Shown here one piece after another: positions 16,124 through 22,180 of a DNA stretch of 64,000 nt; position 1 is the first letter of the stretch; the number at the start of each line of letters is the position of its first letter. The translations under genes and the position numbers were made by a program. This DNA is from Chlorobiota bacterium (GTDB lineage: Bacteria > Bacteroidota > Ignavibacteria > OLB7): NCBI GenBank assembly GCA_963711465.1, contig CAVQEG010000001.1, positions 2,014,332-2,078,331 of the forward strand, in the 5' to 3' direction. The notes beneath the pieces are model-generated. The model saw nothing but the letters and a program-made list of their open reading frames with translations, did no database searches and was not told where the DNA came from.

Positions 16124-18073
16124 TCACCGTGCCTCCTCGACCGCGTTCGCATCCCTATTCCGTTGCTCAATGTCACGACTCTCGCCATCGAGGTAATCAA
16201 GCAGGTACGATTCAATTATGCGATCAATTGGTTTATCACGCCGCTCCGTTGTGAATACTGGATCATAGCTGGTATTCTTGGGTCCAGTATCGGCGCTCTT
16301 GGTGGTTTCCTTAAGTTGATCAGCATTCGGTGCAACGTCGAAAGGATTCTCAACGACTCCAAGATCGGCGAGGTACGATTGTAGAGCCTCCACAACCGTC
16401 TTACCTTGGGCGGCATCGCTTTCCAGATACGTTTCAAAATATACGCCTATAAGATTCGACGGCAGGTCCTCGAAATCGAACGATGAATTGCCACCGGTGA
16501 CCTCGTTGTCCTCTCCACGAGAGAGCACCATGTGCCCGCTGATCAACCAATTGTCTGTGAACCACGCGCCGGCGGCGAGATGGCGCAAATCGAGCCAGCC
16601 CCAACGCTTCGAATACACATATCTCATCGTGATGTTGCGCCCGCCAGACGCTCCGGACGCCCCGAAGGTTGTTGGCGCTCCGCCGAACTGCTCAAGAAGA
16701 TCGCCGAGATCCTGCACGTCATTGCTTTTCAGCATTTTGATAAGAGCCGACAAACTCGCGACCTCGTCTCGGGACGGTTCCCGACCGTCGGCATCCCTGT
16801 AGTTGATCGGATCTTGCGCCAGCACCGAGGACGGAGAGTACATGGGATAGCGTTCTTCGAGTGGGTCGGTGTTCCACCTATGCACCGCTTCGACGTCGTA
16901 TCCGAAATCACCGAATACGAGATGGGCGCCGTACCCATTGCCGTCATTGTCCATCTCCTGCCCATTGAACCCATACCGCCACTCCCCACCCTCGTAGTGC
17001 CGCCCGGGCTGGAGCATGCCGTAGGCGTAGTAGTTGGCATACGTGCTCACCACCGCAACGTACGGATACGTCCCCGACTGCACCGTCGGCTCCTTCATGT
17101 CCGTCACCACCACGCGCACGTTGCCCAGGTGGTCCTTCAGCTCGTAGTACTTCTCCGAGAGCACCCGCACGTGGTACTCGTTCGTCGTGTCGATCGGCGT
17201 GCCTTCGCCGGCCGGACGTGGGAGATCCGTCGGTTTCGTCTCGGCGATGCGTCCCTGCGCTCCGTTGCCGTAGATCACCCACTCGGCCAGTCGGAATGCT
17301 TCGGCACAGTTGGGCTCGCACGGGTTCGGATCGGTGCCGTCCGGTATCCCGTCGGAGTCCTGATCGCCGGCTGGTCCCGCCGTGCATGGACACGGATCGA
17401 CCTCATCCGGAACGCCGTCGCCATCGATGTCGCCGCCCGGAGGGGGGTTGGTGGGGTCCAGCGAGTCCGGATCGCACAGGTTCGGAATGCCGTCGTTGTC
17501 GGTGTCGACGCCTTCGTGCGGGCTCGGCTCCGGATCGACGCAGTTCTCGTAGATCGCCACCACCTTTCCTCCCGCTTCGTACACATAGTAGGACTCCGCC
17601 ATGTCGGTCGGGTTCGCCGGACCGTACACGCGCTTGCGAACACGGTTGCCCTGCGCGTCGTACAGGAAGTCGATGATCTGGTTCGGCTTCACGACCGATG
17701 CCACCTTGCCGTAGGTCGTCCATGCGATGCTCGTGATGCTCTCCGACTGGTCGCCGGTGAGCTCTCCGATCGCATCGTAGGTGTAGTTCTGCTGGATTGG
17801 CTGCACTTCGAGGTCGCCGGCGATCGGCGATGGCGACGGGGCGCTCTCGATCAGGTGCTGCAGTCGGTTGCTCTCCTCACCGGTGACCGGCTGCTGCTCG
17901 TACTCGTAGGTCAGGTTGTCCATCGGTCCCGGATTCGACTGCGATCCATCGCGCGTCAGCGTCCGGATGTTGCCGCTTGGATCGTACGTGTACGACGTGT
18001 TGTACATCGCGCCGGGATCGACCCAGCTGCCGCCGCTGTAGCTCTTGAAATCCGCCTGGAACAGGCGATTCAA
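16124..18073 (-). CDS. Orphan rhs C-terminal cassette 2 with an unrecognised toxin tip. The start is a TTG. The frame opens right at a junction with a truncated SBBP-like gene fragment
   Basis: Translation aligns to Rhs1 from ...YRYDVLNRL onward. The TSP3 block lies at about 17275-17480 and the core end GGEWRYGFNGQEMDNDGNGYG follows. The unique tip is 16124 to about 16960. The in-frame region upstream of the TTG runs back to a TAG at about 18167 with no ATG. Confidence 0.6.
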   Translation of the reverse strand: MNRLFQADFKSYSGGSWVDPGAMYNTSYTYDPSGNIRTLTRDGSQSNPGPMDNLTYEYEQQPVTGEESNRLQHLIESAPSPSPIAGDLEVQPIQQNYTYDAIGELTGDQSESITSIAWTTYGKVASVVKPNQIIDFLYDAQGNRVRKRVYGPANPTDMAESYYVYEAGGKVVAIYENCVDPEPSPHEGVDTDNDGIPNLCDPDSLDPTNPPPGGDIDGDGVPDEVDPCPCTAGPAGDQDSDGIPDGTDPNPCEPNCAEAFRLAEWVIYGNGAQGRIAETKPTDLPRPAGEGTPIDTTNEYHVRVLSEKYYELKDHLGNVRVVVTDMKEPTVQSGTYPYVAVVSTYANYYAYGMLQPGRHYEGGEWRYGFNGQEMDNDGNGYGAHLVFGDFGYDVEAVHRWNTDPLEERYPMYSPSSVLAQDPINYRDADGREPSRDEVASLSALIKMLKSNDVQDLGDLLEQFGGAPTTFGASGASGGRNITMRYVYSKRWGWLDLRHLAAGAWFTDNWLISGHMVLSRGEDNEVTGGNSSFDFEDLPSNLIGVYFETYLESDAAQGKTVVEALQSYLADLGVVENPFDVAPNADQLKETTKSADTGPKNTSYDPVFTTERRDKPIDRIIESYLLDYLDGESRDIEQRNRDANAVEEAR

Positions 18074-18468
18074 GACGTCGTACCGGTAACCGTCGAACAG
18101 GTTCGCACCTGCATTGAAGGATTCCGGTGCCGACCACCCCTCCCCCGAACCATCCCGGTGTCGACACTACGACGAGCGGTGAAATACTCGTACAGGACCC
18201 CGTCCCAAGTGATCCACGGGTTCAACCCATCCCCCCGAAGAAGGAACCGAACCGTCGAGCCCCACTGACCGCGGTTCTCGATGAACACCGCTGCACGGTT
18301 GTTCGCAATCGATGCAACGACGGCGCTGAGCTGCTTCGAATGCGATCGAGCCGATCCAACGACGATGTCGCGACGATGCGTTGAGTCATTGCGCTGGGAG
18401 AGGCACGTCCCTGCTGCAGATCCAGCGATGACCAGAACGAGCGTAGCGCGAATGAGGTGTGTATTCAT
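18070..18468 (-). pseudogene. Truncated paralog of the SBBP-protein N-terminus (signal peptide plus about 100 aa), joined out of frame to orphan 2
   Basis: MNTHLIRATLVLVIAGSAAGTCLSQ...AAVFIENRGQWGSTVRFLLRGDGLNPWITWDGVLYEYF parallels ASVFIENRGQWDSTVRYMMRGGGITTWITDDGMVYDYH of the 8657-12403 gene. DNA at 18170-18300 is homologous to 12170-12300. Homology is lost at about 18150. Confidence 0.6.
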
Positions 18469-22100: not shown

Positions 22101-22180
22101 CTGTTTTCGAATCGAGTCTCCAATCCAACGTCCGGTCGTAATAAACCCGGTCGTATCGCCACCCCTGAGATCGATTCCAC
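19115..22180 (-). CDS. Orphan rhs C-terminal cassette 3, the longest orphan at about 1000 aa, with an unrecognised toxin tip
   Basis: It aligns to Rhs1 from ...LTHNGRYVDWTPQR (junction at about 21900). The TSP3 block lies at about 20400-20600. The core end is GAEWRYGFNGWQHE...VDPEA...LIDPYGDD. The unique tip is 19115 to about 20080. The start is uncertain: the ORF-track start is a GTG at 22180 and overlaps the upstream small ORF (22008-22466), and no ATG lies near the junction. Confidence 0.6.
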   Translation of the reverse strand: MESISGVAIRPGLLRPDVGLETRFENSPVIPDSTKSTVIRGWCLACRYARRIKSDVDDCPGLTDPKENILVFARLGTAHQVFDHRTGTEISLTHNGRYVDWTPQRSTLNRIAHVYADDGVHTQYSYDPHGNVEWVRQEIPELGTNYVRYEYDLISGNMLRMLYDEGWEDQYIQRYRYDEDNRLREVESSRDGEIYESDARYTYYAHGPLRRVEYGEDSVQGIDYTYTLQGWLKAINHPSLDTSAGVDVDPGSDGFGTRRWFAPDAFGMMLGYYDGDFVHGNSPFASGSSVPASSYHLMPSYDLYNGNIATWTTNIQPAGTGGPIDEQLVGYTYRYDVLNRLLEANYHTYGSGGTWTGSLSEYTSSYTYDPNGNITTLTRLGDTAVGAMDQLTYTYYPGTNQLRQVNDVVSSSKYSEDIDDQSDTSNYTYDAIGNMTGDVSEGITDIEWSIYGKVLSVTKANQVLEFTYDAAGNRVRKQVYDPNDPSSLRSTYYVYEAGGKVVAIYENCVDPEPSPHEGVDTDNDGIPDTCDPDPMNPSIPPPGGDIDGDGVPDAVDPCPCTAGPAGDQDSDGIPDGTDPNPCAPNCAEAFHLTEWVIYGNGAQGRIAETKPTDLARPAGEGTAIDTTNEYHERVLSEKYYELKDHLGNVRVVVTDMKEPTVQSGTYPFVAVVSSYANYYAYGMLQPGRHYEGAEWRYGFNGWQHETSFGDDRSTYNTEHRLVDGRIARWTSVDPEAAQSTPYALTRDNPIALIDPYGDDDYFFDSRGNIVGYRQTDGTTSKIYIADKRGAITFADVKYSLLTAVSGRIRVADPADDSFWSTVGRILNGPPTIGLANGGENIFGGNTKSFWTVDNEGKIAGPAPTTGIPGNGWLVGPGGSSRLWAAWQALREGEIAAFLINEAKVGVNALNYLKGVATEEGFTRAIEVMARGLTTEMIADAKMIQPASKMKNQAVTDAMMAITGDVDGWGKYSTKTIELSNGESYQIHFYMNSKTGQIIRDIDFKAKQVRVPGGDGWVIPLN

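Follow-up and report, generated by a model that had tools for sequence, protein, structure and literature searches.

Orphan rhs and cdiA toxin-immunity modules of Enterobacteria were reportedly described by Poole et al. in 2011 and by Koskiniemi et al. in 2014. The locus analysed here is an array of Rhs genes on the minus strand of a 64,000-nucleotide stretch of a Chlorobiota bacterium genome (GCA_963711465.1; the whole stretch is referred to as the window). As in the enterobacterial modules, a full-length gene is followed by core fragments that lack a 5' end and that each bring their own tip and immunity gene, and the shared core permits recombination. Unlike those modules, it resides in a high-G+C genome with a sorting domain of the type IX secretion system (T9SS) type encoded nearby, and its full-length gene, Rhs2, has an N-terminal signal-like segment. 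This study concerns three of the variable C-terminal tips of the array, those of Rhs2 and of two fragments named orphan-2 and orphan-3, together with the small partner gene downstream of each. Taken as a whole, the locus is likely a Rhs polymorphic-toxin array in which orphan-2 carries a lipid-attacking tip of the CapCone type, orphan-3 carries an uncatalogued cytoplasmic toxin whose immunity gene has been replaced, and the Rhs2 tip is a singleton.

The described relatives of the orphan-2 tip are the CapCone families and TelC/TipC (Burroughs, Aravind and co-workers 2025), with which it has the sequence motifs, the hairpin clasp and the soluble helical core in common. Like them, it is a polymorphic-toxin tip with a membrane-anchored partner. 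The substrate of TelC is lipid II, and the chemistry predicted for the orphan-2 tip is similar, namely the cleavage of phosphate-linked lipid head groups. The differences concern classification, delivery and immunity. The orphan-2 tip falls below the threshold of DUF4056 and is not placed in any one of the CapCone subfamilies (DUF4056, CapCone-1 and CapCone-2). TelC rides the type VII secretion system on an LXG protein, whereas the orphan-2 tip sits on a Rhs protein. Its partner, which has three transmembrane (TM) segments and no listed relative, is neither TipC nor the BamE-like immunity protein that is reported to be commonest for Lipocone toxins. The orphan-3 domain and its relatives compare with the CdiA-CT/CdiI and Rhs-CT/RhsI modules (CT, C-terminal toxin region): they likewise follow PT-VENN in CdiA and DPxG in Rhs, and likewise consist of ~100 aa of α/β structure followed by a small, translationally coupled gene for cytoplasmic immunity. 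In contrast to CdiA-CT/CdiI modules, the orphan-3 copy in the window stands without the immunity gene of its family.

Anatomy of the Rhs array

Rhs2 is followed by four Rhs fragments of smaller size, which each have a 3' end of their own and are succeeded by a small open reading frame (ORF), all on the minus strand (Table 1). An earlier, sequence-only reading of the window had named three tips and three partners, and all six ORFs are present on the minus strand at the coordinates given there; the span to which that finding was assigned, 16124-22180, takes in two of the three pairs. In blastn comparisons of the Rhs2 3' region with the orphans, the copies share 85-90% DNA identity, which ends abruptly where the tips start. 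The orphan-2 core is 84.7% identical to the Rhs2 core up to position 16950 and the orphan-3 core 90.4% up to 20079, and the corresponding breakpoint in Rhs2 lies at 26374-26391. The tip starts proposed earlier (16960, 20080 and 26380) are thus placed within ~10 nt of these breakpoints. The partners, too, had been described correctly, with three hydrophobic segments in that of orphan-2, none and 8 Cys in that of orphan-3, and a single N-terminal one in that of Rhs2. At the tip starts the G+C content drops from ~0.65 to 0.49-0.58, and it is low throughout the downstream ORFs in every tip-plus-partner pair. In the tips of orphan-3 and Rhs2, the NCBIfam model of the Rhs_assc_core (TIGR03696) places the core end just within the variable part, at the sequences 'LIDPYGD' and 'YTDIDGD'. 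The core end of orphan-2, 'RDADGRE', was placed by eye in alignment with 'VDPDGGE' of the protein P0001. Beyond the core end a mutual comparison of the tips revealed nothing in common, and neither did a comparison of the partners. With the core, the switching tip and the downstream partner ORF all found, the locus fits a Rhs/YD polymorphic-toxin locus with orphan cassettes.

In this arrangement the orphan cassettes downstream of the one full-length rhs gene (Rhs2) would lack promoters, and each would consist of a core stretch, a distinct tip and a small partner gene. We infer that homologous recombination in the shared core would move an orphan tip onto the expressed rhs gene. Recombination of orphan tips through the shared core is established for Rhs loci. 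A further Rhs core piece occupies positions 1-535 of the window and is 89.7% identical to Rhs2 27410-27945 (blastn), so the orphan array probably extends past the window edge. Shortly upstream of the core end, every Rhs copy contains an insert rich in Asp, Pro and Gly (for example at 17200-17450, 20200-20450 and 26550-26800). The insert reads 'DTDNDGIP..CDPD...GGDIDGDGVPD..DPCPC...DQDSDGIPDGTDPNPC' and resembles thrombospondin type-3 calcium-binding repeats; we know of no insert of this kind in any Rhs shell.

All six proteins were scanned against Pfam, NCBIfam and PHROGs, and the tips also against PDB sequences. No significant family was found for any of the six in the first three databases, nor for the tips among the PDB sequences. 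In a word-indexed homologue search of 5.8 billion proteins with the three tips as queries, a single relative came up for the orphan-2 tip and nothing for orphan-3 or Rhs2. An exhaustive phmmer search used one concatenated query composed of the three tips and the partners of orphan-3 and orphan-2, with the Rhs2 partner left out. Each match was assigned to its part by the matched query range, a procedure that is legitimate with local alignment. The phmmer results given below refer to the best 150 of 227 matches at E<=1e-3; matches with E from 4e-5 to 1e-3 lie outside these 150. They comprise 5 self-matches, ~95 matches to the orphan-2 tip and ~50 to the end of the orphan-3 tip.

The orphan-2 tip and its membrane-anchored partner

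A preprint of 2025 assigns DUF4056 to the CapCone group within the Lipocone superfamily; the clade of this group also contains TelC, a Streptococcus intermedius toxin that acts as a lipid II phosphatase. CapCone-1 and CapCone-2 were reported there as polymorphic-toxin tips (bioRxiv 10.1101/2025.01.14.632903). The CapCone group is defined by a His in helix 2 with a Gly at position -6 and an 'xD' motif, by S/GxxSxx-Asp in helix 4 with an Asn at +4 that follows a small residue and with a Gly close to the end of the helix, and by a hairpin 'clasp' (bioRxiv 10.1101/2025.01.14.632903). A DUF4056 ORF is also a proposed effector of the Salmonella type VI secretion system (T6SS). The relatives of the orphan-2 tip are ~95 cluster representatives with E down to 2e-40. 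At E<0.01, 31/96 of them weakly match PF13265 (DUF4056) in Pfam, and the family consensus matches this model with 26.3 bits (E 5.7e-6), the gathering cut-off being 23.6. The match falls in two stretches, the best-scoring of which spans the conserved 'YEDLxSNLLGVYF'. Both helix motifs of the published definition are kept. In helix 2, G62, D65 (of 'xD') and H68 within 'RWGWLDLRH' are invariant in the family alignment; Gly62 lies six residues upstream of His68, and the 'xD' motif starts four residues upstream of it. Conserved in helix 4 are S100-x-x-S/D103-x-x-Asp106, followed by S109-N110, which places the Asn four residues after the Asp, and by G113 near the helix end. The family consensus 'SAYSYEDLPSNLLG' agrees fully with the published helix-4 motif. 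Consistently, the AlphaFold2 model of the tip, with a predicted local distance difference test score (pLDDT) mostly >90 over aa 1-200, has a β-hairpin (strands E55-58 and E62-65) leading into the His helix (H66-76), which is followed by helices H83-96 and H106-119, again with pLDDT >90.

No structural match of the tip to a solved Lipocone (TelC) was obtained, and Foldseek against the PDB was empty; the model had been made joined to the Rhs2 tip, whose poorly folded half probably degraded the query. Hidden Markov model searches of PDB sequences for TelC or solved relatives returned Rhs-core matches or nothing. The assignment of the orphan-2 tip as a CapCone-type Lipocone domain related to DUF4056 is well supported. 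Because the family consensus exceeds the DUF4056 cut-off and every published CapCone/Lipocone motif is present, the tip is probably a TelC-like phosphoesterase, which by analogy would act on a lipid carrier in the periplasm. Delivered to the periplasm of a target cell, it would act on a polyprenyl or phospholipid carrier, for example lipid II, and cleave its phosphate-linked head group by means of His68 and Asp106. A Bacteroidota-style Rhs array would thereby hold a predicted lipid-carrier-attacking toxin similar to TelC, from the recently defined Lipocone group.

The gene of the orphan-2 partner overlaps the toxin stop, and the hydrophobic segments of the protein start at aa 3, 128 and 164. 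No non-self match to it is among the best 150 of 227. For the toxin relatives 21 loci were recovered, 15 of them with a downstream ORF, and in 14 of these 15 it encodes a TM protein or a lipoprotein. The exception (locus L055) has a 560-aa soluble GTPase-like downstream protein, which probably is unrelated. The 14 membrane-anchored partners belong to several unrelated groups: proteins with 2-3 N-terminal TMs and a soluble tail, lipoproteins, and proteins with the topology of the window partner, that is, one TM, ~100 aa and two further TMs. A protein of the last kind, at locus L062, shares only this topology with the window partner, and no sequence similarity was found between the window partner and the partners of the 15 relatives. 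Beside the relatives of the orphan-2 tip it is thus the class of the partner (membrane-anchored) that is conserved, not its sequence. Partners anchored in the membrane fit with a toxin that acts outside the cytoplasm, and the 3-TM partner would block the orphan-2 tip at the membrane. Membrane or lipoprotein partners have also been reported for Lipocone toxins (bioRxiv 10.1101/2025.01.14.632903).

The orphan-3 domain and its partner genes

Rhs and contact-dependent inhibition (CDI) tips are a main source of new antibacterial enzymes, and with each additional tip family a target or a chemistry not seen before can come to light. The relatives of the orphan-3 tip, ~50 cluster representatives with E from 1e-9 to 1e-5, align with its last ~80-110 residues only. 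Nearly all of these alignments lie C-terminal to aa 139, and aa 1-139 have isolated, partial alignments at most. The consensus of the C-terminal domain reads '...LTxxAI...NPxV...DWGKYxT...Q(I/V)HFYxNxxTG...DFKVK'. W211, K213 and H230 are invariant and T216, Y232, N234, D245 and K247 near-invariant in the family, and the window copy retains all eight. Among full-length relatives the domain follows PT-TG, two-partner secretion (TPS)/filamentous-haemagglutinin (Fil_haemagg), RHS, PT-HINT and extracellular contractile injection system (eCIS)-core regions; its carriers in GTDB genomes are RHS, RHS with PT-HINT, and CdiA with the PT-VENN motif. A scan of GTDB genomes revealed 49 loci that encode the domain, in many phyla. 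The hosts include Streptomyces, Kribbella, Nocardia, Burkholderia, Pandoraea, Haemophilus and Stenotrophomonas, and further Saprospiraceae, Nitrospirae, Chloroflexi, Saccharibacteria and others. On plasmids, a tblastn search with the family consensus found one 'hypothetical protein' of Campylobacter concisus. The occurrence of the same domain at the C-terminus of RHS, PT-HINT, CdiA, PT-TG and eCIS carriers argues for a genuine polymorphic-toxin module. No Pfam or NCBIfam model matches any member or the consensus, and a profile search of PDB sequences was empty. Judged by its sequence, the orphan-3 C-terminal domain is an uncatalogued polymorphic-toxin family that spans phyla.

The AlphaFold2 model of the tip is confident over most of aa ~170-250 (pLDDT 87-98), less so over aa 1-40 (~80) and poor over aa 40-155 (<50). 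The domain consists of helices followed by a β-α-β-β-β arrangement, with the conserved polar residues on three adjacent C-terminal strands. Foldseek searches of the PDB and BFVD with this model returned nothing significant. A BECR-fold RNase (barnase, EndoU, colicin E5/D, RelE) was considered and rejected, there being no match in Pfam, in the PDB profile search or in Foldseek against the PDB and BFVD; the order of secondary-structure elements, taken alone, is compatible with this fold. The domain likewise differs from the BECR-type tRNase CdiA-CTs (E. coli NC101, EC3006, K. pneumoniae 342), having no sequence or Foldseek similarity to those that have been solved. All known partners of the orphan-3 domain are cytoplasmic, and the toxin therefore most likely acts in the cytoplasm. 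Its size, the kinds of residue that are conserved, its carriers and the cytoplasmic immunity make a nuclease of the RNase type our best guess as to its activity. It could instead be a cytoplasmic enzyme of another kind, or a toxin that works by binding; a modifier of nucleotides or proteins would be one example. This alternative gains from the lack of any structural or sequence match to an RNase or DNase family and from the conserved K/H/T/Y/N/D/K set, which is not diagnostic. However, a small α/β domain with basic residues and a His on its strands, cytoplasmic immunity and carriage by CdiA and Rhs proteins is typical of RNase toxins, as is generally known of CdiA-CT and BECR toxins. We take the alternative seriously, while holding it to be somewhat improbable.

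The immunity gene expected for this domain is well defined. In 48 of the 48 genome loci of the orphan-3 type that have downstream DNA, one family of proteins of ~113-137 aa, here called imm120, is encoded directly downstream (loci L004-L051, for example L022:4255-4626 and L032:4246-4608), usually in an ORF that the toxin gene overlaps by 4 nt. A metagenomic relative (P0130) also has an imm120 gene downstream. The family has the consensus 'WLTxGKEYxVL ... PxxW...GFWExYxDGD' and no hydrophobic segment, and neither a Pfam match nor a relative in the PDB was found for it. To judge from a weak match to the Tudor domain of PHF19 and a fusion to DUF4926 at locus L005, imm120 may start with an SH3/Tudor-like barrel. 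The orphan-3 partner in the window had been expected to recur beside relatives of the tip; imm120 stands in its place in all 48 loci. Conversely, no imm120-like sequence was found in any of the six frames of the 64-kb window, and the partner itself scores -1.4 bits against imm120 in hmmsearch and 0.3% probability in hhalign. The protein probably begins with the Met codon at 19106, 8 nt past the toxin stop, which makes it identical to the 168-aa database gene call P0006. The 8 Cys include three CxxC pairs, there is no hydrophobic segment, and weak Pfam matches point to the zinc-ribbon families FeoC, Lar and YokU ('putative antitoxin'). No non-self homologue of it is among the best 150 of 227 phmmer matches. 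From the 8-nt spacing and the low G+C content that tip and partner have in common, the two were probably acquired together, and the partner is probably a replacement immunity protein. In this genome an unrelated Cys-rich, zinc-ribbon-like protein would then stand in for the usual ~120-aa immunity gene.

The missing imm120 gene may also be read as a sign of decay. The orphan cassettes would then be remnants whose tips are toxins no longer and whose downstream ORFs are unrelated or spurious, orphan-3 having lost its real immunity gene. Apart from the absence of an otherwise universal imm120, this view draws on the frameshift in the neighbouring orphan 22530-24280, on the closest relative of the orphan-3 tip (P0076), a truncated 70-aa remnant with no partner, and on the fact that the partners are singletons. 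We consider it unlikely, however, because the ORFs of orphan-2 (649 aa) and orphan-3 (1021 aa) are intact and keep every invariant residue of their families, because the partner gene follows the toxin stop at a distance of 8 nt in orphan-3 and overlaps it in orphan-2, with the same low G+C content as the tips, and because the gene that carries the Rhs2 tip is full-length.

If the Cys-rich partner is indeed a replacement, the orphan-3 pair would illustrate how the immunity fold against one toxin has been replaced in nature, and an orphan-3-type toxin with a different partner would offer a simple experimental system for studying how immunity specificity gets replaced. The orphan-3 domain and imm120 occur in Actinomycetota, Burkholderiales, Pasteurellaceae, Saprospiraceae, Saccharibacteria and others without an entry in Pfam, NCBIfam or the PDB, and are worth cataloguing and solving. 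A more far-reaching claim would combine several parts: that the orphan-3 domain and imm120 make up a toxin-immunity family not described before, whose catalytic fold is new and which occurs in at least 8 phyla, that the window holds the only copy seen in which immunity was replaced by an unrelated zinc-ribbon protein, and that the Rhs2 tip forms with its exported partner a pair that acts in the periplasm, is unique and has no relatives. As a joint claim this is doubtful, and we put it forward tentatively.

The Rhs2 tip, the locus as a whole and its neighbourhood

No homologue of the Rhs2 tip was found in the word-indexed search, and none but the tip itself is among the best 150 of 227 phmmer matches. 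The AlphaFold2 model of this tip, computed joined to the orphan-2 tip, has a pLDDT of 30-50 and is unusable. The partner has its single hydrophobic segment at aa 5-30 and forms a singleton 90% cluster. A tblastn search of plasmids with the tip and the partner returned nothing. In terms of sequence the Rhs2 tip is a singleton without a listed relative. That its partner is exported points to a periplasmic target and suggests that the tip acts in the periplasm. One candidate for such an activity is a peptidoglycan hydrolase of the SleB/CwlJ type (Pfam Hydrolase_2). By eye, the stretches 'LATTLGESSE...AMTFVVINR' and 'GGTTFFNY' of the Rhs2 tip resemble 'LARLVxAEAxGE...VAxVVLNR' and 'IGxHxF' of SleB, and an exported partner is compatible with a cell-wall target. 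The tip has no Pfam match at E<=1, however, and PHROGs was empty, and we regard a SleB/CwlJ-like hydrolase as highly improbable. An hhalign comparison of the tip with an alignment of five phage SleB-like domains gave a probability of 0.6% over 13 residues, and this candidate was rejected.

For the locus as a whole, the sequence-only reading had proposed that all three tips and their partners found new toxin and immunity domain families. The lack of direct matches in Pfam, NCBIfam and PHROGs for any of the six proteins, and in the PDB for the tips, speaks for this proposal, as do the orphan-3 domain and imm120, neither of which has an entry in any catalogue. Yet the orphan-2 tip belongs to the DUF4056/CapCone group, and thus to a known toxin family, and the Rhs2 tip, like the two partners included in the phmmer query, is a singleton among the best 150 of 227 matches; no family can be defined from singletons. 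In its full extent the proposal is decidedly improbable. What survives of it is one new toxin domain, that of orphan-3; the description of the tips as having no recognisable family likewise fits the orphan-3 domain and the Rhs2 tip, but not orphan-2. Conservation of the downstream ORFs beside the tips in other genomes, on which the earlier proposal depended, was not borne out: to judge from the sequence searches, the partners of orphan-2 and orphan-3, the two that were searched, are not conserved beside the relatives of their toxins.

Several points also weigh against our own reading of the array. By itself, the orphan-2 tip of the window has no match to DUF4056; the match is made by the family consensus and by relatives only. 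Three residues before Asp106 it has an Asp (D103), where the clade usually has a Ser. The Cys-rich partner of orphan-3 may have no immunity function. Finally, the Rhs2 tip and the partners of orphan-2 and orphan-3 may have weak relatives (E 4e-5 to 1e-3) beyond the best 150 of the 227 matches. With a CapCone-type orphan-2 tip, an uncatalogued orphan-3 toxin and a singleton Rhs2 tip, the locus is a Rhs toxin array of the ordinary kind in which two parts are new to a modest degree, and it leaves the general picture of polymorphic toxins unchanged.

Table 1. Rhs genes, toxin tips, candidate partners and an intervening ORF of the array. Positions are those of the window.
Feature	Position	Strand	Length	Remarks
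Rhs2, full-length rhs gene	25469-33028	minus	2519 aa	the only full-length rhs followed up for tips here
Rhs2 toxin proper (orphan sequence)	25469-26218	minus	249 aa	end of the full-length rhs gene, after DPxG-type core end
Rhs2 partner, candidate periplasmic immunity	24437-25450	minus	337 aa	N-terminal signal/anchor segment
Frameshifted orphan Rhs fragment	22530-24280	minus		ORFs 23564-24280 and 22530-23837
Orphan-3 Rhs fragment	19115-22180	minus	1021 aa	ORF call and core identity
Orphan-3 toxin proper	19115-19909	minus	264 aa	after DPxG-type core end
Orphan-3 tip, N-terminal part (aa 1-139)	19493-19909	minus		short β-meander and low-confidence linker
Orphan-3 conserved C-terminal toxin domain (tip aa ~140-255)	19145-19492	minus		~50 representatives, AlphaFold2
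Orphan-3 partner, cytoplasmic, Cys-rich, zinc-ribbon-like	18600-19136	minus	178 aa (ORF)	168 aa from Met at 19106
ORF between the orphan-2 and orphan-3 cassettes	18070-18594	minus	174 aa	abuts orphan-2 5' end
Orphan-2 Rhs fragment	16124-18073	minus	649 aa	variable tip after conserved Rhs core
Orphan-2 toxin proper, CapCone-type Lipocone domain related to DUF4056	16124-16783	minus	219 aa	after core end; family consensus, motifs, AlphaFold2
Orphan-2 predicted active site, His68 codon	16580-16582	minus		
Orphan-2 predicted active site, Asp106 codon	16466-16468	minus		
Orphan-2 partner, 3-TM membrane protein, candidate immunity	15559-16122	minus	187 aa	197 aa, starting at 16152, in the database gene call
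Orphan-1 Rhs fragment	13695-15515	minus		

The ORF between the orphan-2 and orphan-3 cassettes has a weak match to DUF7948, and its stretch 'VFIENRGQW.STVR' also occurs at the N-terminus of the gene at 8657-12616. It may be a recombination scar in which a copy of the start of that gene was joined to a Rhs fragment. Two further tips of the array show features of lipases or related hydrolases. That of the frameshifted orphan is a class-3 lipase (Pfam Lipase_3, E 5.8e-6) with the motif 'GFSHGG' and a weak match to Tle3, and is followed by an ORF (22008-22466, minus strand) for 152 aa with an N-terminal hydrophobic segment. The orphan-1 tip (13695-14600, minus strand) has a nucleophile-elbow-like motif, 'HSMGA', and a weak α/β-hydrolase match; it is 24% identical to the lipase tip (E 3e-6), and its partner (13385-13744, minus strand) is a multi-TM protein of 119 aa. 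Nine nearby ORFs were scanned with Pfam, and no PAAR, VgrG or other T6SS marker was seen among them. The T9SS C-terminal sorting domain (Por_Secre_tail) and FG-GAP/ASPIC repeats are encoded by the genes at 45578-46492 and 43057-45336 (minus strand) and are indicative of a Bacteroidota/Rhodothermota-like host. Adjoining the orphan array, an ORF at 12613-13188 (minus strand; 191 aa) matches PF16162 (E 4.9e-15), the KwaB-like domain known from Kiwa anti-phage defence. A second full-length Rhs protein of 2718 aa, encoded at 1131-9287 of the window, carries a C-terminal Peptidase_M91 effector domain (E 3.2e-6).

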